Source of the DNA: Acidimicrobiia bacterium
Lineage (GTDB): Bacteria > Actinomycetota > Acidimicrobiia > Acidimicrobiales > JACDCH01
DNA: 64,000 nt
Direction: 5' to 3'
NCBI GenBank assembly: GCA_052387955.1
Contig: JBQTIQ010000011.1
Location: forward strand, 3,602 to 67,601
The stretch's first letter is position 1. The number at the start of each line of letters is the position of its first letter. Under the pieces are notes generated by a model. It worked only from the letters and a program-made list of their open reading frames with translations. It was not told the DNA's origin and did no database searches. Positions 39,723 to 53,321 of the stretch are shown piece by piece. The position numbers were made by a program, and so were the translations under genes.

Positions 39723-40619
39723 TCAGCTCTGCTCTGTGGGGGCGGGGACGCCGAGCCGGTCGAGGCGGTCGAGCTCGTCACGCACGTCGTCCCACGTCAA
39801 GACGTCCCGTTCGGTGACCAGTACGCCGGCCCGGTCGGCGGCCTCGTGGCGGTGTGCCCACTTGAAGAAGAGGCTGAGGATGACCATCCACAGGAACGCG
39901 CCGGCGCCGAGCTTCATCAGAACGCCGGCGGCCTGCTGGTCGGTGACGGGCCCGACGCCCCACAGCTGGTAGGCGTGCTCGTAGGACGAGTAGATCGGGT
40001 TCTCGGCGAAGATCAGCCAGGCCGAGGGCACGGTGGGCACAATCGACTGCAGGAACAGGTACAGCATCTGGCCCGGCAGGGACAGGCGCAGTTCGGGCAG
40101 CGGGCCGCACACCGGCAGCCACATCATCAGCGCCGACATGAACAACGCGGTGTGGACGAGGTAGTGGACCAGGGCGACGTCGATCGACAGGTTCACCAGC
40201 GCCGGCCAGTGGGTTGCCACGAAGACGGCGTTGAAGACCAAGCCCGCCACCAGCGGCTTGAACAGGGCACGCAACCCCCGGCCCGCCAACGGCCCGCTCA
40301 CGATGAGCCGGGCCAGCCATGGCGGCGTGGCCAGCAGGAAGAGGGGGGCGACGATCATCGACATCAACAGGTGCTGCACCATGTGCACGACCAGGAGCCC
40401 CTCCTCGGCCGTGTCGTGGACCGGCCAGTCGGCCGAGACCCACAGCAGCAAGATGGCGGTGACGAACCACGCCTTCTGACGTCGGGTGACGATCGGCGAG
40501 CCGTCCCGCACCACCTTGGGGCCGATGACCCGTACCGCGTACAGGGCCAGGCCGACGATGCCGGCGATCAGCAGCCAGACCTCGGGGTGCGGCTGCCAGC
40601 GCCAGGGGTCGAACGTCAC
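39723..40619 (-). CDS. ctaG: Cytochrome c oxidase assembly factor CtaG (caa3 type)
   Basis: 298 aa polytopic membrane protein with HMVQHLLL-like (VHMVQHLLMSM) and THWP blocks. Last gene of the cta operon. Confidence 0.8.
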   Translation of the reverse strand: MTFDPWRWQPHPEVWLLIAGIVGLALYAVRVIGPKVVRDGSPIVTRRQKAWFVTAILLLWVSADWPVHDTAEEGLLVVHMVQHLLMSMIVAPLFLLATPPWLARLIVSGPLAGRGLRALFKPLVAGLVFNAVFVATHWPALVNLSIDVALVHYLVHTALFMSALMMWLPVCGPLPELRLSLPGQMLYLFLQSIVPTVPSAWLIFAENPIYSSYEHAYQLWGVGPVTDQQAAGVLMKLGAGAFLWMVILSLFFKWAHRHEAADRAGVLVTERDVLTWDDVRDELDRLDRLGVPAPTEQS

Positions 40620-40661: not shown

Positions 40662-41000
40662 CTACACGAAGACGTGGAAGGTCATGAGCACGACGCAGTA
40701 GACGAACGTGGCCAGGGCCAGGCCGATGATGAAGAAGCGCCGGAACACCTTGCTGTCGAAGCGCAGGTGCATGAAGAACATGGCCACCGTGGCGAACTTG
40801 ACCACCATCATCACCACCAGCGTGACGAGCAGCAGCCCGAAGTTGTCGGTGAACGCCGGGATGTAGGAGACGGCGATCTCGGCCCCGGTGACCACGGCCA
40901 GGAACAGCGCCACGTAGACGTAGGTGAGGTCGGTGGGATGGGCGTGCCCGTGCTCGGCGTGGAGATCGGCCGGCGCCCCGTGGCTGGTGTCGGTGGCCAT
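40662..41000 (-). CDS. ctaF: Cytochrome c oxidase subunit IV (Bacillus CtaF-type)
   Basis: ATG 41000 lies after GGAGAGG. 112 aa, 3 TM, with a KFATVAMFFMHLRF block. Confidence 0.75.
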   Translation of the reverse strand: MATDTSHGAPADLHAEHGHAHPTDLTYVYVALFLAVVTGAEIAVSYIPAFTDNFGLLLVTLVVMMVVKFATVAMFFMHLRFDSKVFRRFFIIGLALATFVYCVVLMTFHVFV

Positions 41001-41017: not shown

Positions 41018-41674
41018 CTACGGGATCAGGTAGACGACGGTGAAGATGAGGATCCACACGATGTCGACGAAGTGCCAGTACAGCCCGATGATCTCCACCG
41101 TCTCCGCCCGGGCCTGGCCCAGGCGCCCCCGCATCGACATGATGACCAGCGACATGAGCATGACGATGCCGATGCTCACGTGCACGCCGTGGAACCCGGT
41201 CAAGGTGTAGAAGGCGGTGGCGCCGACGTTGGTCGTGTACCCCATCCCCTCCTTCACGAAGGAGGTGAACTCGTAGACCTGGCCGGCGATGAAGATGGAG
41301 CCGAGCAGCGCCGTTGTCGTCAGCCACACCCGTAGGTTGCGGTGGTCGCCCCGTTGCCCGGCCGACAGGGCCAGCACCATCGTCAGCGAGCTCATGAGCA
41401 GCACGAAGGACGACACCGAGGTGAAGGGGATGTCGTAGAGGTCATGCGGGCGGGGGCCCCGCAGCGCGGTGTTCTTGTAGAGCAGGTAGGTGGAGATCAG
41501 GCCGCCGAAGAGCAGGCAGTCGGAGGCCAGGAACACCCACATCCCCAGCTTCTCGTTGGACACGCCCGTGACCGTCCACCCGTGCTCGCCGGGCTGGGCG
41601 TCGTGGTGGCCTTCGGGGTGCGGGCCGGCCGGCGGCGTGCGGACCTCGGGGGGGACGCTGACAAGCTCGCTCAC
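41018..41674 (-). CDS. ctaE: Cytochrome c oxidase subunit III
   Basis: GTG 41674 overlaps the ctaD stop (GTGA). FYTLTGFHGVHV and LYWHFVDIVWILIF signatures. Confidence 0.9.
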   Translation of the reverse strand: MSELVSVPPEVRTPPAGPHPEGHHDAQPGEHGWTVTGVSNEKLGMWVFLASDCLLFGGLISTYLLYKNTALRGPRPHDLYDIPFTSVSSFVLLMSSLTMVLALSAGQRGDHRNLRVWLTTTALLGSIFIAGQVYEFTSFVKEGMGYTTNVGATAFYTLTGFHGVHVSIGIVMLMSLVIMSMRGRLGQARAETVEIIGLYWHFVDIVWILIFTVVYLIP

Positions 41675-43719
41675 GACTGGTCGCCCTCGGCGTCGGAGCT
41701 GCCGGCACCGACCGCGGCCAGCTCGCCGTCGCCCCCGGCCAGGGCACCGGCGGTGTCGTCGCCGCCGTCGGGGCTCCCGGGGGGCTCTCCCCCGCCGTCG
41801 CCGGCTTCCTCCTCGAACGCCGGCTCGAGGCCGATGCCGACCATGCCGGCAACGAGGACGAAGCCCCCGACGGCGGCGAAGGCCAGGTTGAAGATGAGCC
41901 CGTAGCCGATGAGCGGGAGGCCAGCGGCCAGCACGATCGGCCAGTACGAGGGGGACGGCAGGTGGGGATGGGCGGTGCCGGCCTGCACGACATCGGCGGA
42001 CTTGGCGATGGGCACGGGCCGGCCGGCGTCGTCCTCGCCGTACTTGCGGTGCCAGAACTCGTCGAGGTGGGTCACGACCGGGACCTCGTCGAAGTTGTGG
42101 GGCGGGGTCGGCGACGGGACCATCCATTCGAGGGTCCGGCCGTCCCAGGGGTCGGCCTCTGCCACCAGCTGCTCCCGCTTCGCCTTGCGGTAGCTGTGGC
42201 GGATGTTGTGGAGGAAGATCAGCACCGACAGGGCGATCACGAACGAACCGATGGTCTCGACCATGTTCCAGAAGTTGAACCCGTAGCCGTCGAGATAGGT
42301 GTACGTCCGACGGGGCTGGCCCATCAGCCCGACGATGTGCATGGGGCCGAACGTCAGGTTCATGCCCAGCAGGACGAGCCAGAAGTGCCAGTTGCCGAGG
42401 CGTTCCGACAGCCGGTGGCCGAAGACCTTGGGCCACCAGTAGTAGAAGCCGCCGAAGAACATGAGCAGCGACCCACCGAAGATCACGTAGTGGAAGTGGG
42501 CGACGATGTAGTACGTGTCCGTCTGTTGCAGGTCGGACGGCGACACCGAATGCGTCACCCCTGACAGGCCGCCGATGGTGAACATCCCGACCATGGAGAT
42601 GGCGAACTTCATCGCCACCGTGAAGCGCAGCTTGCCCCCATAGAGGGTCCACACCCAGTTGAGGATCTTCACCCCGGTGGGGACGGCGATGAACATCGTC
42701 GACAGCGAGAAGGCGGCGACCGACAGCGGCCCGATGCCGGAGGCGAACATGTGGTGCGCCCACACGCCCCAGCCCATGAAGCCGATGGCGATGCCCGACG
42801 CCACCATGAACGTGTAACCGAAGAGCGGCTTGCGGCTGAACACCGGGAGCACCTCCGACACCATGCCGAAGGCGGGCAGCACCAGGATGTAGACCTCGGG
42901 ATGGCCGAAGAGCCAGAACATGTGCTGCCAGAGGAGCGGGTCGGCGCCGGCCGCGGCGTCGAAGAAGCTGGCCCCGAACAGTCGGTCGAAGGTCAGCATG
43001 AACAGGGCGACGGAGATCACCGGCATGGCGAACACCAGCAGCAACTGGGTGATGAAGCCCATCCACGTGAACACCGGCATCTTCATCAGCGTCATGCCCG
43101 GTGCCCGCAGGTTGACCACCGTCACCACCAGGTTGATGGCGCCGATCAGCGACGCGAACCCGGTGATCTGCAGCCCGATGGCGTAGAAGTCCATGCCGTG
43201 GGTGGGCGAGAAGATGACGCTGGTGTTGGGGGCGTAGGCGAACCATCCGCCGTCGGGGGCGCCGCCCAGCAGCCACGACGAGTTGAGGAACAGGCCCCCG
43301 AAGAGGAACAGCCAGAAGCTGAGGGCGTTGAGCCGCGGGAAGGCGACGTCGCGCGCCCCGATCTGCAACGGCATGAAATAGTTCATGAACGCTGCGCCCA
43401 ACGGGATCACGACGAGAAAGATCATCGTCACGCCGTGCATGGTGAAGATCTGGTTGTACTGGGCCGCGTTGAGGACGGTCCCGTTGGGATGGGCCAGCTG
43501 CAGGCGGATCAGCAGGGCCTCGATCCCGCCGATGATGAAGAAGAAGATCGCCGCGGCGCCGTACATGATCCCGATGCGCTTGTGGTCGACCGATGTCAGC
43601 CACCCCATCACCCCGGTCGGCTCGCCGGGGCGGCTGAACGCACCCATGGGGCGGTAGGCCGACACCTCCGGCTGGCCGGAGGGCAGGGCCAGCGGCGCCG
43701 CGGTTTCGCTGGTCGTCAC
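41671..43719 (-). CDS. ctaD: Cytochrome c oxidase subunit I with fused subunit-IV-like C-terminal helices
   Basis: All canonical ligands are present: FTMHG, WLFGHPEVY, WAHHMF, VAHFHYV. The C-terminal SYWPIVLAAG... two-helix extension is followed by an acidic tail. Confidence 0.95.
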   Translation of the reverse strand: MTTSETAAPLALPSGQPEVSAYRPMGAFSRPGEPTGVMGWLTSVDHKRIGIMYGAAAIFFFIIGGIEALLIRLQLAHPNGTVLNAAQYNQIFTMHGVTMIFLVVIPLGAAFMNYFMPLQIGARDVAFPRLNALSFWLFLFGGLFLNSSWLLGGAPDGGWFAYAPNTSVIFSPTHGMDFYAIGLQITGFASLIGAINLVVTVVNLRAPGMTLMKMPVFTWMGFITQLLLVFAMPVISVALFMLTFDRLFGASFFDAAAGADPLLWQHMFWLFGHPEVYILVLPAFGMVSEVLPVFSRKPLFGYTFMVASGIAIGFMGWGVWAHHMFASGIGPLSVAAFSLSTMFIAVPTGVKILNWVWTLYGGKLRFTVAMKFAISMVGMFTIGGLSGVTHSVSPSDLQQTDTYYIVAHFHYVIFGGSLLMFFGGFYYWWPKVFGHRLSERLGNWHFWLVLLGMNLTFGPMHIVGLMGQPRRTYTYLDGYGFNFWNMVETIGSFVIALSVLIFLHNIRHSYRKAKREQLVAEADPWDGRTLEWMVPSPTPPHNFDEVPVVTHLDEFWHRKYGEDDAGRPVPIAKSADVVQAGTAHPHLPSPSYWPIVLAAGLPLIGYGLIFNLAFAAVGGFVLVAGMVGIGLEPAFEEEAGDGGGEPPGSPDGGDDTAGALAGGDGELAAVGAGSSDAEGDQS

Positions 43720-43720
43720 A

Positions 43721-44902
43721 TCAAGCTCCCGGGGTGGTGGGCGGGATGGCGCCGTCGGGATAGGGCCCGAGCGTCTCGAGGTAGGCGACGAGGCTGTCGA
43801 CCTCTTCGGGGGGCAGGGCCAGGTTGGGCATGCCCCGGCCCTCGTCGGCGGCCATCGGCAACAGGGCCTCCGGGTTGCGCAGCCACGCTTCGAGCTGGTT
43901 GCGGTTGAACTCGAGGTTGCCGTTGGCGTTGGGGACCCAGAGCTGGAACTGGGCGCTGGCGAACACCTTGCGGCTCATCAGGTGGGTGAGGTCGGGGGCG
44001 TGGCCGGTGACGAGCGCCTCTACCCCCTCGGGGCCGAACTCGTTCACCCCGCCGATGCGGTGGCAGGAGGCGCACTTGGCCTCGAAGACGGCCAGGCCCT
44101 CGGCGGCGAGGCTGTCCTCGGCCGCGGTGGGCGCCTCTTCCTGCTGGTCGCGCACCCAGTCGTCCCAGTCGTCGTCCGAGAGCACCACCGCCCGCGCCCG
44201 CATGTTGGCGTGGGACAGGCCGCAGAACTCCTTGCACTGGCCGTCGAACTCGCCCACCTCGTCGGCCCGCATCTGCAAGCTCTGGGTGCGCCCGGGCACG
44301 GCGTCGCGGGTCCCCGCCAGGGCCGGGATCCAGAAGCTGTGGATGACGTCGCGGGAGCCGATCTCGAGGTTGACGGGCCGGTCGACCGGGATCACCAGCT
44401 CGTTGGCGGTGATGATCTCGGGAGTGCCGTCCTCGTCGAGGTCGTACTCGTAGGACCACCACCACTGGTGCCCGTAGACGTTGACGGTGACGGCGTCCGA
44501 CGGCGACTTGCCGATGCGCAGCAAGGTCACCAGCGTGAAGATGGCCACGAGCACCAGGACGACGAAGGGCAGGACCGTCCAGGTGATCTCGATGGCGAAG
44601 TTCCCGTGGACCTGTTCGGGATCGGGTTCCCCCGACATCGAGCCCCGACGGTGACCGGTGTAGAGGACGTAGCCGAGGACGGCGGCGACGAGCAGGCCGA
44701 CGACGCCGGCGGCGATGAACACCGGGACCTGCAACGTGTTGATCTGCTCGGCCGAACGGCCCGAGGGATGGAAGATGTCCTGGCGGGTCTCGCTGCAACC
44801 GGTCGCCACGAAGGCAACCGCGATCAACGCCCCGGCCCGGCCGGTCCGGGCCCGGCGGAGCCGGTGACGGGGGCGACCGCGCATGGTTGTGAAGAATTGC
44901 AC
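43721..44902 (-). CDS. ctaC: Cytochrome c oxidase subunit II with C-terminal cytochrome c domain (caa3)
   Basis: CuA site HSFWIP...CKEFCGLSHANM and heme c motif CASCH. Lipoprotein signal ...FVATGC. The start is GTG 44902 or ATG 44884. Confidence 0.9.
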   Translation of the reverse strand: MQFFTTMRGRPRHRLRRARTGRAGALIAVAFVATGCSETRQDIFHPSGRSAEQINTLQVPVFIAAGVVGLLVAAVLGYVLYTGHRRGSMSGEPDPEQVHGNFAIEITWTVLPFVVLVLVAIFTLVTLLRIGKSPSDAVTVNVYGHQWWWSYEYDLDEDGTPEIITANELVIPVDRPVNLEIGSRDVIHSFWIPALAGTRDAVPGRTQSLQMRADEVGEFDGQCKEFCGLSHANMRARAVVLSDDDWDDWVRDQQEEAPTAAEDSLAAEGLAVFEAKCASCHRIGGVNEFGPEGVEALVTGHAPDLTHLMSRKVFASAQFQLWVPNANGNLEFNRNQLEAWLRNPEALLPMAADEGRGMPNLALPPEEVDSLVAYLETLGPYPDGAIPPTTPGA

Positions 44903-44904
44903 GA

Positions 44905-45738
44905 TCAGTGCCCGGCCTGCGATTCGGTCGGGAGCCCCGGGACGGGCTGGAGGCGATCGGGGGCCGTCGGCTCGAAATGGGCCTCGTGGGGGTGGTACTC
45001 GCGGCTGCCCTCAACCGCGCCGACGATGCCGGAGGCCAGAACCGCGAGGGCACCGGCCACGAGCAGGCCCCGGGCCAGCTTGCGCCCGCCATGGGGCATG
45101 ACCGAGACGAGCACGGCGGCACCGAGCACGAGCACCGCCACCAGGCCGGCGACGATCCAGGCGCCCGACTTGGACAGCGCCAGCAGGGCCCGGGAGATGC
45201 CCAGTACCACCCCGACGATAGCGATCGCCCCGAAGAGGGGCACCTCGACCGGCATCATGAGCCGGTTGCGGATGCGCCGGTTCACCTCGGCGTCGCCGGT
45301 GGCCCGGTCGGCCCATGTCGACACCATCCACTCGAGGAGCACCAGGATCAGGACCAGCACGCCGAACACGAACAGCTGGGCGCTGACCACCAGGCCGAGC
45401 GCGACCGAGACCGCCCCGAACGCCCCGGCCAGGGGCCAATAGCTGGCCGAGGCAGGGGCAGGTACCTCGGGGACGGTGTCGGTCTGGGCGACGGCCGTGA
45501 CGGCGTGGGCGTTGGCATCGCGAAAAGCGATGGTGACGCTGCCCAGGAACACGCTGACGATGAACGTGAAGACCAGGATGACGAGGCCGGTGTGCTCGCC
45601 GACCCCGCCATCGACGCCCAACGACAGCACGCCGTTGAGCCCGCCCCGGGCGCCGAGGCCGTACACCATGGCGCCGCCGAAGGCGAGGACGCCGAGGATG
45701 TAGAAGAACCTCGATCCGACGGTGAACATCCGGTCCAT
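44905..45738 (-). CDS. 7-TM membrane protein with a subunit-IV-like SYWP module and a His-rich tail
   Basis: 277 aa. ASYWPLAGAFGAVSVALGLV resembles the CtaD C-terminal SYWP helices. Ends with EYHPHEAHF. Its stop lies 2 nt before the ctaC GTG. Confidence 0.7.
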   Translation of the reverse strand: MDRMFTVGSRFFYILGVLAFGGAMVYGLGARGGLNGVLSLGVDGGVGEHTGLVILVFTFIVSVFLGSVTIAFRDANAHAVTAVAQTDTVPEVPAPASASYWPLAGAFGAVSVALGLVVSAQLFVFGVLVLILVLLEWMVSTWADRATGDAEVNRRIRNRLMMPVEVPLFGAIAIVGVVLGISRALLALSKSGAWIVAGLVAVLVLGAAVLVSVMPHGGRKLARGLLVAGALAVLASGIVGAVEGSREYHPHEAHFEPTAPDRLQPVPGLPTESQAGH

Positions 45739-45744
45739 CGGGGC

Positions 45745-46398
45745 CTACTTCTTCAGGAAGATCGTGTACCAGAGAATGGCGTACACGAAGACGGTCACGT
45801 ACCAGTAGATGGCAGCGGCGGCGATCCCCTCACGGTCGCGGCCGGAGTACTGGCCACCGAGCGTCCGGAACGCCATCAGGCCGACGAAGACCACACCGAC
45901 GGCGGCCATGGCCATGTGGCTGCCCATGAGGGCGTAGAACATCATGCCGTAGCGGCTCCGCAATCCGATGTCGTACTGCGAGAAGCCGAACGCCATGCCG
46001 TTGAGATAGGCGCCGCCGAGCAGGGCGGTCAGGCCCAGGGCGAGGTAGGCGCGGGGACGGTCGTCGTGGGCGATGGCGTGCACCGCCCACTGCACCATGA
46101 ACAGCGAGAGCAGCAACGTGGCCAGCCCCACCTGGGCCGGCGTGATCGGCAAGGCCGCGCCCTCGGGCAGGAACTCGCGGCCGGCGACGCTGGCGGCGTT
46201 GCGCTCGGACAGGTACACGGCGAGGAGGGCGGCGAAGGCCATGACCACGCCGCCGAGGGCCAGGGCGGTGCCCATGAACAGCACCCGGGGCCGGGGTACG
46301 GGCGGGGGCGGCGGGTGGCCGATGGCGATCTCGTCGACGCGTTCGGGGAGCAACGTGGGCGTCACCGTCGGTCCATTCTGTGGGGCTGCGCCCCACAC
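45745..46398 (-). CDS. Heme-copper oxidase subunit III-like protein (paralogue)
   Basis: FYALMGSHMAMAAVG...AAAIYWYVTVFVYAILWY parallels the ctaE blocks. 5 TM. The start is uncertain (GTG 46398 or an internal ATG). Confidence 0.7.
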   Translation of the reverse strand: MWGAAPQNGPTVTPTLLPERVDEIAIGHPPPPPVPRPRVLFMGTALALGGVVMAFAALLAVYLSERNAASVAGREFLPEGAALPITPAQVGLATLLLSLFMVQWAVHAIAHDDRPRAYLALGLTALLGGAYLNGMAFGFSQYDIGLRSRYGMMFYALMGSHMAMAAVGVVFVGLMAFRTLGGQYSGRDREGIAAAAIYWYVTVFVYAILWYTIFLKK

Positions 46399-46461
46399 CC
46401 ATCGCCGCCGGGCGAGCTGGCACTCGCGCCGCCGACCTGAGGCGCTCGCTTCGCTCGCACC

Positions 46462-48084
46462 TCAGATGGCCTGTTCTTCTCGGAGATCGAGCAGCGGGGT
46501 GGCCGAGCGCACCGGGACCGAGGCCGGGTCCTCGGCCCATTCGAGGGAGTGGCCGCCCCACGGGTCGATGATGGGCTCGTCGTCGTCGTACTCGTCGGGC
46601 TTGCGCCGCAGCGCCTTGGTCACGTTGATCACGAACATGGTCATCCCCAGGAACAAGAGCCCTGCGCTCAGCACCGTGCCCAGGTTCAACAGGCCGACCC
46701 CGTGCCGCAGCGGCTCGGTGGCACGGATGTGGGAGCGTTGGTCGAGCATCCCGCTGAAGACGTCGAAGGTGGCCACGCCGCCGGCGCCGAGGAAGATGCA
46801 CAGGGCCGTCAGCAGGCCCAGCATGTCGCCCGGCATCTTGCCCAGGATCAGGGGCCACCAGTAGTGGATGGAACCGACGAGGGCGAGCAGGGCGGCGCCG
46901 AGGGCGAAGTGGACCGGGGTGGTGTCCGCCGTCGTGCCCACCAGGTCGAGGGGGGTGATGACCCGCAGGGCGGCGGCCGACGCCCCGCCCAGCAACAGCA
47001 GCATCGTCATGATCGAGAACAGCAGCGGGCTGCCGAGCTGGAACCGGCCCCGCCACAGGGTGTCGACCATGCCGCCCATGATCCCGACGATGGGCAGCGC
47101 CAGCGAGAGGGCAACCACGATGTAGAGGAACTGCGTGGTGACCTGGGGAGCGTCGAACTGGCTGTTGGGGGCGATCCAATTGAAGCCGTAGAAGGCCCAG
47201 GCGCCGAAGGAGAACATCCCGAACATGGCGATGAACGTCAGCGTGATGAACCGGAAGCGTTGGCGGTTGCGGGCGAAGACCTGGACGGCGTCGGAGGCGA
47301 AGCCGATGGCAGGGATGGCGGCCGCGAACACCTGGGGCGGGGTCATGGCCCACCGCAGCCACAGGTCGATGCGGTTGGCGCCGCCGAACTCGAACACCCG
47401 GTAACGGCTGTCGATGTAGAGCAGCACGAGCAGGCCGAGCAGCACGCCCAGGCTGGCGATCCAGATGGTGGTGGTCACCAGCATCGACCACGCGAAGAAC
47501 GGCGCTCGCTCCATGGTCATGCCCGGCGCCCGCAGGGCCAGCACGGTGGTACCGATACAGACCGACGCCACCAGCAGCGAGACCACCACCAAGGCGAACG
47601 AGATCAAGAAGAGGTCGACCGCCTGCTCGTTGCCACCGAAGGGGCCACCGTTGATCAGGTAGCTGATCACGACGAGGGACGACGAGAGCAGATAGGTCCA
47701 GTAGGAAGCCGCGGCGGCGCGGGGGAAGGCGACGGTCTGGGCCCCCACCTGCTTGGGGACGACCACAATGGCCACGCCGATCAGGGCCGGCAACAGGAAC
47801 AGGAACACGGTCGACACGCCGTGCAGCGACAGCACCTGGCGGAAGACGTCGCTGTCGAGCAGGAACGTCGACGTCGTCTTGAGCCGCTCGACCCCGAGCG
47901 CCCCGCCCAGCGCGCCGCCGAGGGCGAGGAAGAGGAACGAGGTGGCCAGCCACAACCGGCCGATGACCTTGTGGTCGGCGCTGCCGAACAGACGGAACGT
48001 CCGGCCCGGGCCTTGAGGCTCGCCGGCGGCGTCGGTCTCGTCGGCGTCGATCTCAGGTGCCGGTCGGGTCTGCGTCGCCGTCAC
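46462..48084 (-). CDS. Heme-copper oxidase subunit I-like protein lacking the CuB ligands and one heme ligand
   Basis: 540 aa, collinear with CtaD (DHKVIG, AFPR, LRAPGMT, DPWGG.SLEW). However GHPEVY becomes TPPQVF, WAHHMF becomes WAFYGF, and HFHY becomes HFAL. Confidence 0.8.
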   Translation of the reverse strand: MTATQTRPAPEIDADETDAAGEPQGPGRTFRLFGSADHKVIGRLWLATSFLFLALGGALGGALGVERLKTTSTFLLDSDVFRQVLSLHGVSTVFLFLLPALIGVAIVVVPKQVGAQTVAFPRAAAASYWTYLLSSSLVVISYLINGGPFGGNEQAVDLFLISFALVVVSLLVASVCIGTTVLALRAPGMTMERAPFFAWSMLVTTTIWIASLGVLLGLLVLLYIDSRYRVFEFGGANRIDLWLRWAMTPPQVFAAAIPAIGFASDAVQVFARNRQRFRFITLTFIAMFGMFSFGAWAFYGFNWIAPNSQFDAPQVTTQFLYIVVALSLALPIVGIMGGMVDTLWRGRFQLGSPLLFSIMTMLLLLGGASAAALRVITPLDLVGTTADTTPVHFALGAALLALVGSIHYWWPLILGKMPGDMLGLLTALCIFLGAGGVATFDVFSGMLDQRSHIRATEPLRHGVGLLNLGTVLSAGLLFLGMTMFVINVTKALRRKPDEYDDDEPIIDPWGGHSLEWAEDPASVPVRSATPLLDLREEQAI

Positions 48085-48226: not shown

Positions 48227-49225
48227 TCACAGCCCCGAGCGCACCAGCTGGTCGGCGGCCATGGCGCCGAAGAGCAGGGTGATGTAGGTGATCGACCATC
48301 CGAAGAGGCGCATGGCGCTGCGCCGGACCGCCACCTCGGCGCCCCCGTGGGGAGCCCCGTTCCCGAGGGCGCCGCCGGTGGTGGCGGCGGCGGCCAGCAC
48401 CCCGCCCGCCCCGGCCCCGTCGTCGGCCGGCGCCAGGCGCAGCAACTGCACCGCGAACCAGGTGAACACCCCGCCGAGCACGATGGCCGAGCCCAGGTAG
48501 AGGTGGCCCATACCCGCCACCGGCGAGAACAGGACCGTCAGCGCCCACAGCAGGAGCGTGTAGAGGAGGATACGGGTCGCCACCGTCCGTGGCCCGGCCA
48601 CCGAGGGCAGCATCGGCACGTCGGCAGCCGAGTAGTCCTCCCGGTACCGGATGGCCAGCGCCCAGAAATGGGGCGGGGTCCAGTAGAAGATGATGCCGAA
48701 GAGCACCAGCGGCGCCCAATCGAGCCGGCCCGTCACCGCCGACCAGCCCACCAGCACCGGTACCGCCCCCGCCGCGCCGCCGATCACGATGTTGTGGCTC
48801 GAGGTGCGTTTGAGCCACAGCGTGTACACGAAGACGTAGAACAGCGTGGCGCTGACCGCCAGGACCGCCGAGAGCGGGTTCACCGCCAGCCACAGGAACG
48901 CGAATGCCGCCGTTTCCAGCAGCAAGGCGAAGACGAGGGCGTTGCGGGGCTCGATGACGCCGGTGACCAGTGGCCGGTTGCGGGTGCGGTCCATCAGCTT
49001 ATCGATGTCCCGGTCGACGTACATGTTGATGGCGTTGGCCCCGCCGGCGGCCAGCGTGCCGCCCAGCACGGTCGCCACCGTGAGCCACAGTCCGGGGAGC
49101 CCGGCCTCGGCCACCACCATCGTCGGCACGGTCGTGACCAGCAACAACTCGATGATGCGGGGCTTGGTCAACGCGACGTACGCACCGGCGCGCGAGCGCA
49201 GCGGGAGCCGGGCTGACGGGTGCAT
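48227..49225 (-). CDS. ctaB: Protoheme IX farnesyltransferase (heme O synthase)
   Basis: ALTKPRIIELLL, GGANAINMYVDRDID and WTPPHFWALA are UbiA-family motifs. Confidence 0.9.
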   Translation of the reverse strand: MHPSARLPLRSRAGAYVALTKPRIIELLLVTTVPTMVVAEAGLPGLWLTVATVLGGTLAAGGANAINMYVDRDIDKLMDRTRNRPLVTGVIEPRNALVFALLLETAAFAFLWLAVNPLSAVLAVSATLFYVFVYTLWLKRTSSHNIVIGGAAGAVPVLVGWSAVTGRLDWAPLVLFGIIFYWTPPHFWALAIRYREDYSAADVPMLPSVAGPRTVATRILLYTLLLWALTVLFSPVAGMGHLYLGSAIVLGGVFTWFAVQLLRLAPADDGAGAGGVLAAAATTGGALGNGAPHGGAEVAVRRSAMRLFGWSITYITLLFGAMAADQLVRSGL

Positions 49226-49345
49226 GACGCCCGCACACTAGGACGCGCGAAGCGTGGCGGACCAAAGCCCGATCCCGGCCGGTGGGGGCGACCGCCACAG
49301 GCACCGAGTGGCACTCGAAGGAGGCAGCGCGCGACCCTGCTGAGG

Positions 49346-50329
49346 GTGGCCGTCGTCCCCGCCCGTTGGTGGCCGTTGCCGCGTCTGGCGCCCGGGACCT
49401 ACCACCGGGTGACGCTGTTCGCGCTGCTGGCGCTCGGCTTCATCGTCGTGACCGGCGCCGCTGTGCGCCTCACCGGTTCGGGCCTGGGGTGCCCGACGTG
49501 GCCGCAGTGCCAGGACGGGAGCCTCGCCCCCTTTCAGCCCGCCACCGGGCACCACGCCTGGATCGAGTTCGTCAACCGGGTCATCACCGGGCTGGTGTCC
49601 GTCGCCGTCGGCGCCGCCGTCCTGGGCTCCCTGCTGCGCCAACCCCGGCGCCGCGACCTTGTGCGCCTGTCCTGGGGCCTGGTCATCGGTGTGGCCGCCC
49701 AGATCGTGCTGGGCGGCCTGACGGTGCTGTTCCACCTGGCGCCGCTGTTCGTGATGGGCCATTTCCTGTTGTCGATGGTGCTGGTCGCCAACGCAGTGGT
49801 CCTGCACCACCGCGCCGGCCAGGCGGGCGGCGCCCAACGTCCGATCGTGGCCCCCGAGGTCCGCTTCATGGGACGGGCCCTGGTGGCGGCGGCCGGGCTC
49901 ACCCTCGTCACCGGGACACTGGTGACGGCGGCCGGCCCCCACGGCGGTGACGAGCGCGCCCGCCGCCTCGACTTGTTCGTACCCGACATCGCCCGCCTTC
50001 ACGGCGTGAGCGAGAACCTCTTCCTGCTGTCCACGCTGGCCACGCTGTGGCTGTTGCATCGGACCGGCGCCCCCGGCGTGGTGCGGCGGCGGGCCCAGGT
50101 GCTGCTGGCCGTCATGGTCGCCCAGGCCGCCGTCGGCTACACGCAGTACGCCACCGGCGTGCCCGTGCTGCTGGTCGGCGTCCACGTCTTCGGCGCCGTC
50201 TGCGTGTGGGTGGCGGTGCTGCGGTTCCAGCTCGGGCTGCGCCAGGCCGACGAGGAACCGCGCCCGGCGCCCGTGCCCCTCGTCGAGCCGGCGGTGGCGA
50301 TGGGTGTGGGGACCAGCCCCATCGCATGA
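49346..50329 (+). CDS. ctaA: Heme A synthase (COX15/CtaA)
   Basis: VRLTGSGLGCPTWPQC, HAWIEFVNR and paired His in the TM helices. The start is uncertain (GTG 49346 or TTG 49376). The track ATG 49220 would overlap the ctaB start. Confidence 0.8.
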   Translation: MAVVPARWWPLPRLAPGTYHRVTLFALLALGFIVVTGAAVRLTGSGLGCPTWPQCQDGSLAPFQPATGHHAWIEFVNRVITGLVSVAVGAAVLGSLLRQPRRRDLVRLSWGLVIGVAAQIVLGGLTVLFHLAPLFVMGHFLLSMVLVANAVVLHHRAGQAGGAQRPIVAPEVRFMGRALVAAAGLTLVTGTLVTAAGPHGGDERARRLDLFVPDIARLHGVSENLFLLSTLATLWLLHRTGAPGVVRRRAQVLLAVMVAQAAVGYTQYATGVPVLLVGVHVFGAVCVWVAVLRFQLGLRQADEEPRPAPVPLVEPAVAMGVGTSPIA

Positions 50330-50399: not shown

Positions 50400-50705
50400 A
50401 TGGCACCGATGCCGACCGAGACGATGCCGGCCGAGGTCGACCTGCCCGTCGACGACACCGCGGTCGAGCCCGACCGGCCCTGGGTGGTGATCGTGTGGAA
50501 CGACCCGATCAACCTCATGGACTACGTCACATTCGTGTTCCAGAAGCTCTTCGGCTACAGCCTCGAGAAGGCGACCAGCCTCATGCTCGATGTGCACCAC
50601 AAGGGCCGCGCCGCGGTGTCGAGCGGCCCGCGGGAGAAGGCCGAGCTCGACGTGTTCCGCCTCCACGAGCACGGCCTGTGGGCCACCATGCAGCACGATG
50701 ACTGA
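50400..50705 (+). CDS. clpS: ATP-dependent Clp protease adaptor ClpS
   Basis: 101 aa. [25 protein letters not shown]...[12 protein letters not shown] is the ClpS core. Confidence 0.95.
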
Positions 50706-50706
50706 A

Positions 50707-50737
50707 GGTTTCGTTCCGAAACCAAAGGTTTCGAAAC
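50707..50737. other. AT-richer cluster of GGTTTCG/CGAAACC half-sites (hairpin plus palindrome)
   Basis: GGTTTCG-TTC-CGAAACC-AAA-GGTTTCGAAAC starts 2 nt after the clpS stop. It could act as a terminator or as a protein-binding site. Confidence 0.4.
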
Positions 50738-50745
50738 GAGTCGAC

Positions 50746-50851
50746 GGTGCCCGCCTACGGCGGGCTCGCACCGCCTGCGGGCGGCAAAGCCACCCTCCGG
50801 CGGACATGCGGGGGTGCCCCCCGCGCCCCCTGCGGCTGCGCCGTGCAGGAC
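50746..50851 (+). repeat. Dispersed GC-rich multi-hairpin intergenic repeat, copy C (core only)
   Basis: Aligns by eye with 36410-36513 and with the reverse complement of 6898-7004, with about 10 differences. It lies between clpS and the DUF2017 gene. Confidence 0.75.
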
Positions 50852-50936
50852 GCTCTCTCCGCTCGGGCCGGCAGTTGCAGGAGCTTGGAACCAACATCTC
50901 GGTCAACCCGTCCGCATGCCCGGGGTGGGAGCGGTG

Positions 50937-51404
50937 ATGCGGCGGCGGGTCCGGCGGGGCCGGGAGGGGATGTTCCAAGTGCGGTTGCCCGACATCGAGC
51001 GCGACTTGCTGCTCAGCCTGGTCGGGCAATTGCGCGAACTGCTGGTCGCCGGTGAGCCCGACGGGCTCGAGCGGCTGTTCCCACCGGGCTACGCCAACGA
51101 CGAGGAACGCAACCGGGAGTGGTCGGCGATCACCCACGACGAGCTCCTGGACAAGCGGCTGGCCTCACTCGACCTCGTCGAGAAGACGGCCTCGGCTCGC
51201 GAGGTCGACGAGGCCGGGCTGACGGCGTGGATGGCGGCGGTCAACGACCTGCGCCTGGTGCTCGGTACCCGGCTCGGCATCACCGAGGACGACGACGGGC
51301 TGGCCGAGCTGGGCGCCGAGGACGCCGGCGGCGCCGCCCCGGCGGTGTACGCCTACCTGACCCAGTTGCTCGGAGAGATCGTGTACGCCCTGGCCAACTG
51401 GTGA
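50937..51404 (+). CDS. DUF2017-family protein (usual ClpS neighbour in Actinomycetota)
   Basis: Trimmed to ATG 50937. The acidic helical protein (LFPPGYANDEERNREW..., AVNDLRLVLGTRLGITED) matches the family normally found after clpS. Confidence 0.7.
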   Translation: MRRRVRRGREGMFQVRLPDIERDLLLSLVGQLRELLVAGEPDGLERLFPPGYANDEERNREWSAITHDELLDKRLASLDLVEKTASAREVDEAGLTAWMAAVNDLRLVLGTRLGITEDDDGLAELGAEDAGGAAPAVYAYLTQLLGEIVYALANW

Positions 51405-51509: not shown

Positions 51510-53321
51510 TCACCCCAGCAACGGGGCGCAGGCGCCGATGGCTTCGCCGAAGGCGACGGCGGTCGACGGCACCGGCTCGTCGTCGGGCCCGAGGGACTGC
51601 ACCTCGACGACCTGGTCGAAGCTGAGCCGCCGCAGGACGCAGTCGGAGGCGGCGAAGGCCGAGGTGACGTCGCCGTCGACCTGCTCCTCCAGTGCGCCCT
51701 GCATGAGGTCGGACCGAAAGCGGGCCACGTCGAGGGCCTCGAAGGACCGGTTGTTGACGACGGCCTCTGCCGTCGGGCCGGGATCGCAGGCCTCGACCAG
51801 CAGCTCGGGCCCCCGGTCGCCGACCGAGGCGGCGCCGGCCGGCATGGCCGCAGCCCAGTCGTCGAGCGCCCCCCGCAGGGTGGCGACCGCATCGGTGTCC
51901 TTGGCGGCGAAGGCAAGGCGCATGCAGGTGCGGCCCGACTGGTCATAGGCCACGTAGGCATCGCCGGCCCATCCGTCGGCTGCACCCAGTGCCCGGACCG
52001 GGTCGATGCGCTCGGCCAGCACCAGGTACAGCGCCACCGCGCCGAAGTCGCCCTCGTCGGTGCTCACCGCGATCCCCTCGGGCAGGGCCGGGGCCGCCAC
52101 CGCCGTCACCGGGCGGTCGTCGAAATGGGCGCGGGGCGTGAGCAGTTCGTTGTCGGAGCCGGGAGGCGCCCGCAGGGCGGCGTCGACGCCACGGTCGCCC
52201 TCGCCCGCCTCGAGCAGTCGGACCAGGGGGGCACCCAGGATGTACGGGGCGCCCTGGAAGGCCTGGAGGGCCTCAGGGACCCCGCTCAGGCCGGCGCTGG
52301 CCCCGTCGAATTCCACCTGCGCGGCCCGGAAGTACTCGTCCTGGTCCGTCTCCGACAGTGAGGCGACGTACTCGTCCTCGATGCGCACGGCGTCGCCCTC
52401 CACCAGGGCGCGGAACGCTGACTGGGCCCCGCTGCTGGGAAGGCCCTCGAGCCGGGATTCGCCGATGTCGAAGTTCTGGTCCTGGAGGACGTGGACGAGT
52501 TCGTGCACCAGCGTGACCTCGAGGCTGACCGACATCTCGCGGCCCCGGACCGCGATCCGCTCCGACTCGGTGTCGTAGAAGGCCAAGGTGCCGGCGTCGC
52601 TCAGGTCGTTGCCGGCGGCCACGAGGTCGACCTCGCCGGCGGCCAGCCCGACCGCCCGCAGCTCACCGACGGCGGTGTCGATCGAGGCCCGGTCCTCGGG
52701 GGTCAGCTCGCCGGCGTCGGTGCGGGCCCGCTCGGAGTACTCGGAGGCGGTGAGGAAGTCGATGTGGACGGGGTGGGCGAACGCCAGGTCCCGATGACCC
52801 TCGACGAAGCTGACCAGCTCGGCCGCCCGCGGGTCCCACTGGTCGGGGAACGCGGGCCCCTGATCGTCGTCGGACGTGAACACGAACGCCCGGCCCACGA
52901 ACGCGGCCACGACGGCCGCTATGACGAGCGCGGCGACGGCGCCGGCCCGGTTGCGGTCTCGCCCGGTGCCGGGGGCAGGTGGTGGCGACGGGGTGGTCGA
53001 GGCCGCCGGGACAGGCCAGGCCGGCGGCGGGGACGACGTTGGCGGCTGGACCGGCGACGGCCGGGCCGGCGCCACCGGCGGGGAGGGCGGCGACAGCAGG
53101 AGGCCGAGCCCCGGGCCCCCGGTCCTGCCGGTGTCGGGAGGGGCACCGCCGATGCCGAGTTGGCAGAACTTGCACGAATCCCAGTCAGCCGGCACGGCGA
53201 GGGTGCATCGAGGGCAGATGGCGGCGGCGATGGGCACGAGAGGGGTTCCGTCCTGTTCTCCCGCCACCTGCGGCGGGCGTCCTATCCGTCGGCCGGGGGC
53301 CGACGCCGCGTTAGGGCTCAC
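51510..53321 (-). CDS. Membrane-anchored putative zinc metalloprotease with N-terminal zinc ribbon
   Basis: CPRC...CKFC ribbon, a Pro-rich linker, one TM helix (AVAALVIAAVVAAFVG), and an extracytoplasmic domain with HELVH and a downstream EGDA. An alternative start is GTG 53237. Confidence 0.6.
   Translation of the reverse strand: MSPNAASAPGRRIGRPPQVAGEQDGTPLVPIAAAICPRCTLAVPADWDSCKFCQLGIGGAPPDTGRTGGPGLGLLLSPPSPPVAPARPSPVQPPTSSPPPAWPVPAASTTPSPPPAPGTGRDRNRAGAVAALVIAAVVAAFVGRAFVFTSDDDQGPAFPDQWDPRAAELVSFVEGHRDLAFAHPVHIDFLTASEYSERARTDAGELTPEDRASIDTAVGELRAVGLAAGEVDLVAAGNDLSDAGTLAFYDTESERIAVRGREMSVSLEVTLVHELVHVLQDQNFDIGESRLEGLPSSGAQSAFRALVEGDAVRIEDEYVASLSETDQDEYFRAAQVEFDGASAGLSGVPEALQAFQGAPYILGAPLVRLLEAGEGDRGVDAALRAPPGSDNELLTPRAHFDDRPVTAVAAPALPEGIAVSTDEGDFGAVALYLVLAERIDPVRALGAADGWAGDAYVAYDQSGRTCMRLAFAAKDTDAVATLRGALDDWAAAMPAGAASVGDRGPELLVEACDPGPTAEAVVNNRSFEALDVARFRSDLMQGALEEQVDGDVTSAFAASDCVLRRLSFDQVVEVQSLGPDDEPVPSTAVAFGEAIGACAPLLG

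Follow-up and report, generated by a model that had tools for sequence, protein, structure and literature searches.

Subunit I of the heme-copper oxidases is defined by its binuclear centre, in which O2 is reduced. In cytochrome bd oxidases, CydB and the archaeal CydA' have lost their cofactor sites, yet each serves as structural partner of the working subunit. Sulfocyanin and halocyanin are membrane-anchored blue-copper proteins associated with archaeal oxidases. The nitric oxide (NO) reductases (NORs) keep a high-spin heme and a three-His metal site, with Asp for one His in gNOR, and reduce NO (PMC11214002). The locus described here lies in a 64,000-nucleotide stretch of DNA, referred to below as the window, from an Acidimicrobiia bacterium (Acidimicrobiales; assembly GCA_052387955.1, contig JBQTIQ010000011.1, positions 3,602 to 67,601 of the forward strand). 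Between ctaB and the genes of a caa3-type oxidase, the window carries three open reading frames (ORFs), designated X1, X2, and X3, which are predicted to form a conserved non-catalytic paralogue set of the oxidase core: a subunit I (I'), a subunit III (III'), and a subunit IV (IV') fused to three further helices. The oxidase of this bacterium probably has an undescribed non-catalytic partner. The reading favored here, held with about even confidence, is that the products of X1-X3 would form a pseudo-oxidase sub-complex beside the caa3 oxidase, a structural or accessory partner whose role does not depend on cofactors.

X1 (540 amino acids; 46462-48084; X1-X3 and all their motifs are on the minus strand) is a subunit-I paralogue without the binuclear centre. 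X1 matches the COX1 family (PF00115) at 163 bits, against a cut-off of 34.8 (E 1.3e-47), and is collinear with the genuine CtaD of the window at 27% identity across ~550 residues, as had been proposed in a first-pass annotation made from the DNA letters. Its scores are far under the curated equivalog cut-offs, with 207.8 against 670.75 bits for TIGR02891 and 183.6 against 880 for NF050116. The AlphaFold2 (AF2) model of X1, built with 68 family members, has a 12-helix fold with a predicted local distance difference test score (pLDDT) of 90.3 and a predicted template modelling score of 0.91. Foldseek places this model at a TM-score of ~0.82 to actinobacterial CtaD, Thermus caa3, and E. coli bo3. 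When PDB matches are ranked by bit score, X1 is nearest to mycobacterial CtaD (148 bits), and the CtaD of the window is nearest to Bacillus QoxB (545 bits), followed by mycobacterial CtaD (510 bits). As to origin, X1 may be a duplicate of its own CtaD or may go back to an ancestral actinobacterial aa3 oxidase. The best matches of X1 by both sequence and structure are mycobacterial and corynebacterial CtaD.

Within this fold, the catalytic centre has been lost. The segment RWAMTPPQVF (47326-47355) replaces the CuB-His/Glu/Tyr motif WLFGHPEVY, and in the change from HPEVY to PPQVF, the CuB ligand H273 (CtaD numbering) becomes Pro, the gating Glu becomes Gln, and the cross-link Tyr becomes Phe. 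The CuB His-His motif WAHHMF is replaced by WAFYGF (47182-47199), with Phe and Tyr at H322 and H323, and Pro takes the place of H408, which binds heme a3. In the conserved cytoplasmic loop II-III, GAQTVAFPRAA (47713-47745) carries Thr for the D-channel Asp and Ala for the Asn (GARD to GAQT). The K-channel segment PTGVK reads PIVGI, with Ile for both Thr and Lys, two residues of the Mg site are deleted, and the P-side loop III-IV is shortened by 13 residues. Apart from that at H408, these changes were checked by BLASTP, HMMER, MAFFT, and hhalign, which all concur on the losses; the CuB-motif and D-channel-entry substitutions that were first read from the window hold across the four methods, and the register of the CuB losses was right. 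The CuB and heme a3 ligands are almost entirely missing from 72 X1 orthologues and 230 further clusters, in which the channel columns are lost as well; CtaD from the same loci keeps every ligand and channel column (16 of 16). With the CuB/heme a3 centre, the Tyr, the Mg site, and the residues of both proton channels (D and K) missing, X1 can neither reduce O2 nor pump protons by the known routes. That X1 is not an O2 reductase had been suggested from the window, and the absence of the CuB and heme a3 ligands there and in nearly all of ~300 relatives bears this out.

What the X1 family conserves lies largely in one half of the protein. Helices II-VI, the cytoplasmic loops II-III (QVGA.TIAFPR) and IV-V (LRAPGM...P.F.WS), and the GGP stretch within loop III-IV are conserved family-wide, as is the tail at the C-terminus (DPW.G.TLEW...S..PLLD), and helices VII-XII are poorly conserved. 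In canonical oxidases, the region made up of loops II-III and IV-V and helices II-VI lies near subunit III. If this location holds for the paralogues, the conserved half of X1 would be in keeping with a contact to X2 that has been preserved. Among the roles first considered was that of a repurposed membrane unit conducting ions or protons. The intact 12-helix fold would suit such a role, and Asp or Glu occupies the D-channel entrance (the D132 position) in 90 of the 117 clusters of one clade, that of locus L087. In the clade of the window, however, D132 is Thr or Ser, N139 is Ala, E286 is Gln or Thr, and the K-channel Thr and Lys are hydrophobic. In addition, the X1 family alignment holds no family-specific charged or polar residue conserved inside the membrane helices, which argues against a new ion pathway, and helices VII-XII are the variable part. 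With the D- and K-channel residues gone and no new polar ones fixed in their place, ion conduction is without support and highly improbable.

The first-pass annotation described the set as ligand-less, with only the helix-II His and one helix-X His remaining in X1. The ligands of the binuclear centre are indeed gone and the count of two His holds, but the label overstates the loss, as both belong to the low-spin heme a site. His88 in helix II (47821-47823) corresponds by alignment to CtaD H95, an axial ligand of the low-spin heme a. In helix X, pairwise BLAST and HMMER put the X1 His on the first His of AHFHYV, two residues off, while hhalign of 302 X1 against 62 CtaD sequences puts His392 (46909-46911) on the second His, H410, which is the other axial ligand of heme a. 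MAFFT with the less diverged copies of loci L087 and L090 also places His392 on H410, with QMHYTLYGG aligned gap-free to HFHYVIFGG, and the same register follows from how far downstream of it the GG and WxPK motifs lie. The earlier claim that the first helix-X His survives is therefore the wrong way round: H410 is kept and H408 is the residue replaced by Pro. As His392 equals H410 and His88 equals H95, X1 retains precisely the two axial His of the heme a site, and in the X1 of the window nothing but this pair is left of the cofactor ligands. In the AF2 model, His88 lies 10 residues and His392 lies 7 residues from the starts of helices II and X, which would be the P-side ends by canonical subunit-I topology. 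The X1 family does not conserve the two Arg by which the heme propionates are held. Of the 302 X1 sequences, 186 have both His of the pair, 36 have one, and 80 have none. On a neighbour-joining tree of these sequences, parsimony sets a minimum of 14 changes for one His and 16 for the other, and neither is found in 21 separate clades.

X2 (217 amino acids by the longest ORF; 45745-46398) is a diverged five-helix subunit-III paralogue. As the first reading of the gene had it, X2 is a homologue of this subunit, passing the gathering cut-off of the COX3 family (PF00510) with 36.7 against 23.8 bits. The closest curated model is that of actinobacterial CtaE (NF050119), for which X2 scores 53.8 bits, below the cut-off of 190. 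X2 is collinear with the CtaE of the window at 23% identity over 178 residues. The signature polar residues are lost, with YWYVTV for YWHFVD and the Glu of GQVYEF gone.

X3 (277 amino acids; 44905-45738) has seven predicted helices, made up of a CtaF-like four-helix part and three further helices, and ends in a His-rich acidic tail. The match of the CtaF-like part to the subunit IV family PF12270 is weak (15.6 bits, below the cut-off of 26.9; E 0.017) and spans residues 10-138 of X3 and profile positions 6-123 of 132. Among the relatives of X3, 11 of 24 match PF12270 at E ≤ 1, and the relative P0279 does so above the Pfam cut-off (31.1 bits). The SYWP segment of X3 aligns with the C-terminal extension of CtaD (hhalign probability 76%). 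The original description of a seven-helix protein with an SYWP module stands as to helices and module, and falls short in extent, as the weak likeness to PF12270 covers residues 10-138. Against the family models searched, X3 matches no family above threshold. The AF2 model of X3 also has seven helices, and a fold search with it returned no match at E < 0.001, a result that is uninformative given the model pLDDT of 66. A search of PDB sequences with the X3 profile matched only designed helical repeats, which were rejected as spurious.

The most conserved stretch of the X3 family is a loop with invariant columns, EWMV..WADRATGD..VNRRIRNRLM.P.E.P (45238-45333), which is probably cytoplasmic and supplied the pattern used to scan species genomes. 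The His-rich acidic tail, GSREYHPHEAHF, is found at 44974-45009. From the positive-inside rule and the cupredoxin fusions of relatives, the N-terminus of X3 would be cytoplasmic and the tail periplasmic. Protein P0121, from an Acidimicrobiia metagenome-assembled genome (MAG), is identical to X3.

About one quarter of the listed X3 representatives are long forms with an extra C-terminal domain of ~100 residues, presumably periplasmic. This domain matches Cupredoxin_1 and Copper-bind above the Pfam cut-offs (55.9 bits in P0242; also in P0298 and P0279). The type-1 copper ligands, H...C-x2-H-x2-3-M, are intact in 4 of ~42 long-form clusters. The other long forms are without the ligand motif, and in those inspected, either another residue stands in for the Cys or a different beta-rich domain is present. 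The X3 of the window has no cupredoxin domain and ends 35 residues past helix 7. That the set has no subunit-II paralogue, as first stated, is true in the window, where X1-X3 have no Pfam match to subunit II (PF00116/PF02790), but must be qualified for the family, in which relatives of X3 end in a cupredoxin domain. The idea that X3 is a disguised subunit II was rejected, as hhalign against CtaC covers only the long-form cupredoxin part, at a probability of 32%.

Three further observations concern the forms of X3. Residues 41-52 of the protein in the window (45583-45618) form a loop, GGVG(D/E)HxG(Y/F/L), that is probably periplasmic and holds an invariant His49. This loop is found in 103 of 151 short forms and in 0 of 42 forms with a C-terminal cupredoxin-like domain, so domain loss goes with loop gain; the loop and the His-rich tail could be a substitute metal site. 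The gene for P0279, the strongest PF12270 match and one with type-1 copper ligands intact, is preceded by opposite-strand genes and not by X1 and X2, a context that may hint at the origin of X3. The relative P0225 (480 amino acids) is continuous with a COX2 domain, through either a real X3-CtaC fusion or a stop codon lost in assembly; if it is a true fusion, P0225 would be direct evidence for X3 and subunit II working together.

The least degenerate lineages of the module are L087 and L090, in which a copper-competent X3 stands beside an X1 with the His pair and an Asp at the D-channel entrance, without CuB and heme a3 ligands. The family is a graded series, from copper with the heme pair, to the heme pair only (as in the window), to nothing, and synteny and selection are unchanged along it. 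These sites can be read as a redox relay, in which the low-spin heme of X1 (held by His88 and His392) and a copper on X3 would pass or buffer electrons to the caa3 oxidase. Such a module would correspond to the part of an oxidase that leads from CuA to heme a, with no O2 site. The copper would be that of the type-1 cupredoxin in some relatives and perhaps of the His-rich tail in the window. For such a relay, the two His retained are exactly the axial pair of heme a, they occur together in most X1 with one alone being rare, they lie at similar helix depth in the AF2 model, and L087 and L090 combine them with intact cupredoxin ligands and an Asp at the D132 position. The relay is most credible for L087-type lineages and is possible for the window because the His pair of X1 is kept there. 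However, the pair has been lost in at least 21 clades in which the module, its synteny, and purifying selection persisted. Most cupredoxin forms have degenerate copper ligands, the domain is missing from the X3 of the window, the propionate Arg pair is not conserved, and a heme inside the 12-helix bundle has no obvious onward acceptor. A relay is thus a tentative and rather improbable account of the module. It is likewise doubtful that X1-X3 represent an unrecognized class of the heme-copper superfamily, that is, a redox-active single-heme "cytochrome" on a subunit-I scaffold, fixed in the Acidimicrobiia caa3 supercomplex and joined by type-1 copper in some lineages. If it were true, a single-heme module would supply electrons to the caa3 oxidase, buffer them, or control their flow, and would not itself reduce O2.

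The module is found class-wide and is maintained by selection throughout the Acidimicrobiales. Relatives of X1 number in the hundreds at 36-81% identity, and those with names are almost all from Acidimicrobiales, Acidimicrobiia, or Actinomycetota MAGs. The X3 profile recovers 1218 clusters at 50% identity, and a scan of one genome per species finds an X3 relative encoded by 387 species-level genomes. The 80 loci listed from these 387 genomes are all in Acidimicrobiales, Acidimicrobiia, or unclassified Actinomycetota records, and the listed carriers include Microthrixaceae, Ilumatobacteraceae, and Acidimicrobiaceae. A cultured carrier is Aquihabitans sp. McL0605, with the locus (L062) at around 2.185-2.202 Mb of NZ_CP188252.1. 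A survey of gene order and a test for purifying selection on the substituted copies had been suggested in the first-pass annotation, and both come out in favor of a maintained module. The order ctaA, then ctaB-X1-X2-X3-ctaC-D-E-F-G, recurs in essentially all 84 loci compared, and again in L085-L087. In well-behaved close pairs, the ratio of nonsynonymous to synonymous substitution rates (dN/dS) is 0.08-0.26 for X1, 0.06-0.2 for X2, and 0.06-0.15 for X3, which is similar to CtaC and ~2-fold that of the CtaD encoded beside them. The X1 sequences diverge more quickly than CtaD, with identities of 26-54% versus 60-79% among the same loci. Since the three genes are intact, syntenic, and have dN/dS well below 1, they are predicted to be functional and not decaying.

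The loss of catalytic residues and the faster evolution of X1 are what decaying duplicates, or pseudogenes in progress, would also display. This explanation is refuted, as the ORFs are intact in ~80 loci with dN/dS well below 1, like that of CtaC, the motifs are highly conserved, the AF2 model of X1 is confident, and frameshifted copies occur only where CtaD, CtaC, or CtaE matches are also in pieces. In L011, L013, L016, L025, L029, L042, and L089, matches to X1 and/or CtaD, CtaC, and CtaE are split into pieces. These are read as assembly errors and not as decay because split X1 copies are found only where CtaD, CtaC, or CtaE is broken too; such loci would mislead an automated pseudogene count.

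In the window, the minus-strand order is ctaB, X1, X2, X3, ctaC, ctaD, ctaE, ctaF, ctaG. The three ORFs of the module sit exactly where they were first placed, and all are intact. The gaps are 142 nucleotides from ctaB to X1, 63 from X1 to X2, and 6 from the X2 stop to the X3 start, and the X3 stop (TGA, 44905-44907) is 2 nucleotides from the ctaC GTG at 44902. The two shortest gaps were reported at the outset and are confirmed by the junction sequences, as is the tight linkage of X1-X3 to ctaCDEFG. An alternative ctaC ATG (44881-44883), located before a lipoprotein-like signal, would lengthen the X3-ctaC gap to 21 nucleotides. In related loci, stop and start codons overlap at X1/X2 and X3/ctaC (L001-L003) or at X1/X2 and X2/X3 (L087). 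The G+C content at third codon positions of X1-X3 is 0.92-0.94, matching the neighboring genes in a window of ~72% G+C. No terminator-like sites above chance level were found at the X1-X3/ctaC junctions. A promoter scan detected nothing, and at this G+C content such a scan says little.

It is proposed that X1-X3 would be transcribed with ctaCDEFG and probably translationally coupled, and that their products would form a pseudo-oxidase sub-complex adjoining the working caa3 oxidase, with co-assembly being probable. For instance, the module could pair with the oxidase in the manner of a heterodimer or could serve it as a docking platform. On this reading, the low-spin heme and the blue-copper domain of relatives would be ancestral remnants that were discarded repeatedly while the module was kept. 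As the module outlived repeated losses of the heme pair and the copper site, its conserved role probably needs no redox chemistry. Several observations weigh against this proposal. The His pair is retained in most X1, that of the window included, and a few relatives keep a type-1 copper site, so a redox role is possible in those lineages. X3 and ctaC are 163-255 nucleotides apart in the loci of the long, cupredoxin-bearing forms, which means that coupling is not universal. In addition, an operon position by ctaA and ctaB equally suits a role in assembly.

As an assembly scaffold or chaperone, the module would transiently hold copper or heme a, the product of the adjacent CtaB and CtaA, or would template the folding of CtaD and CtaE, and would not be found in the mature enzyme. 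Its genes have ctaB/ctaA on one side and ctaC on the other, the last gene of the operon encodes a caa3-type CtaG assembly factor, the ligands of the heme a pocket are retained in many lineages, and X3 offers a His-rich tail, probably periplasmic, together with the loop of the invariant His49. Nonetheless, this role is unlikely. It leaves the joint conservation of complete I', III', and IV' partners unexplained, and the heme ligands are dispensable in many clades. The stop/start overlaps with ctaC also hint, as weak evidence, at matched synthesis of the kind expected for the subunits of one complex.

The genes next to the module encode a caa3-type oxidase, its assembly factor, and heme synthases. 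On the minus strand, ctaC (43721-44902) encodes subunit II of the caa3 type, with the CuA motif and a fused cytochrome c domain (PF00116, PF02790, and PF00034; TIGR02866 at 189 bits). The genuine subunit I is encoded by ctaD (41671-43719), whose product has all six His, scores 508 bits for PF00115, and passes the TIGR02891 cut-off with 678.7 bits. Its C-terminal ~120 residues (41671-42042) form a two-helix SYWP extension (SPSYWP...) with a weak DUF7541 match, and the extension matches PF12270, the subunit IV family, in orthologues. On this basis, the working oxidase seems to carry half a CtaF on its subunit I by fusion, besides having a separate Bacillus-type CtaF gene. The start of ctaE (41018-41674), which encodes the genuine subunit III, overlaps the ctaD stop (GTGA). 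It is followed by ctaF (40662-41000), a Bacillus-type subunit IV judged by its translation and by orthologous genes that match PF03626 (COX4_pro), and by ctaG (39723-40619), a caa3-type assembly factor (PF09678, E 5.8e-40). Upstream of X1 are ctaB (48227-49225, minus strand; PF01040), which encodes heme O synthase, and the divergent ctaA (49220-50329, plus strand; PF02628), which encodes heme A synthase.

Other features of these loci lie outside the module. A ClpS and DUF2017 gene pair (50400-51404, plus strand) adjoins ctaA, and such a pair is found beside ctaA, or beside ctaB where ctaA is absent, in every related locus with inspected gene calls. At 51510-53321 (minus strand), a 603-amino-acid ORF has good codon bias and no Pfam match. 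Its product has an N-terminal Cys-x2-Cys...Cys-x2-Cys, a Pro/Ala-rich linker, and an HExxH motif (LVHELVHV), which suggests an unannotated zinc metalloprotease. Upstream of the cluster in L003, at a distance of ~9 kb, is a second pair of genes for COX2-cytochrome c and COX1 (L003:1-1226) that no X genes adjoin, and only one of the oxidase operons of that organism has the pseudo-oxidase module.

The existence of a large clade that keeps the subunit-I fold and its own subunit III and IV partners, and drops the centre by which subunit I is defined, implies that selection can act on this scaffold for a function other than the chemistry of O2 or NO. In the Acidimicrobiales, including Microthrixaceae and Ilumatobacteraceae, the main terminal oxidase probably has an undescribed architecture. 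In databases, relatives of X1 are named "cytochrome c oxidase subunit I," "subunit I+III," or "cbb3-type cytochrome c oxidase subunit I." Such names imply a catalysis that the sequences do not support and inflate oxidase counts in metabolic reconstructions. The graded forms of the family also provide a natural record of a redox enzyme turning into a pseudo-enzyme.

The first-pass annotation did not recognize X1-X3 as a described system, and this agrees with what is available for comparison. No description was found in the searchable literature, with most subscription journals being outside the reach of the search, and the PDB has no entry with an X1-like or X3-like chain. Among solved structures, the A-family core of the Actinomycetota, bcc-aa3 (PDB 6adq, 7qhm, and 8hcr), shares with X1 the same 12-helix subunit-I fold; X2 matches its subunit III, and the first four helices of X3 weakly match subunit IV (PF12270). 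In contrast to that core, X1 is without CuB, the heme a3 ligand, the D and K channels, and the Mg site, has the shorter loop III-IV (by 13 residues), and belongs to a set that has no subunit II and scores far below all equivalog cut-offs. X3 also differs from CtaF in its three extra helices and its conserved loop, which is probably cytoplasmic.

The nearest analogy in logic is with cytochrome bd CydB and archaeal CydA', which are degenerate copies of a catalytic subunit kept for structure. Archaeal cydAA' is the subject of bioRxiv 10.1101/2021.01.16.426971. However, the bd oxidases belong to a different superfamily, and in X1-X3 a whole three-subunit set has been duplicated. Moreover, the degenerate bd copy is an obligatory subunit of a heterodimer that has been shown, whereas the physical association of X1-X3 with caa3 is a proposed one.

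Like sulfocyanin and halocyanin, the long-form relatives of X3 carry a membrane-anchored cupredoxin encoded beside oxidase genes, and a few of them keep the type-1 copper ligands. They differ from those proteins in that most long forms have lost the ligands and the anchor is a seven-helix CtaF-like protein; the X3 of the window is without the domain altogether. Finally, X1 resembles the NORs (cNOR, qNOR, eNOR, bNOR, sNOR, gNOR, and nNOR) in being a subunit-I homologue without the active-site Tyr and without O2 reduction, but unlike them has lost every ligand of the binuclear centre. X1 thus has the fold of the heme-copper superfamily, yet is without the high-spin heme next to a His-ligated metal by which the described families are defined.

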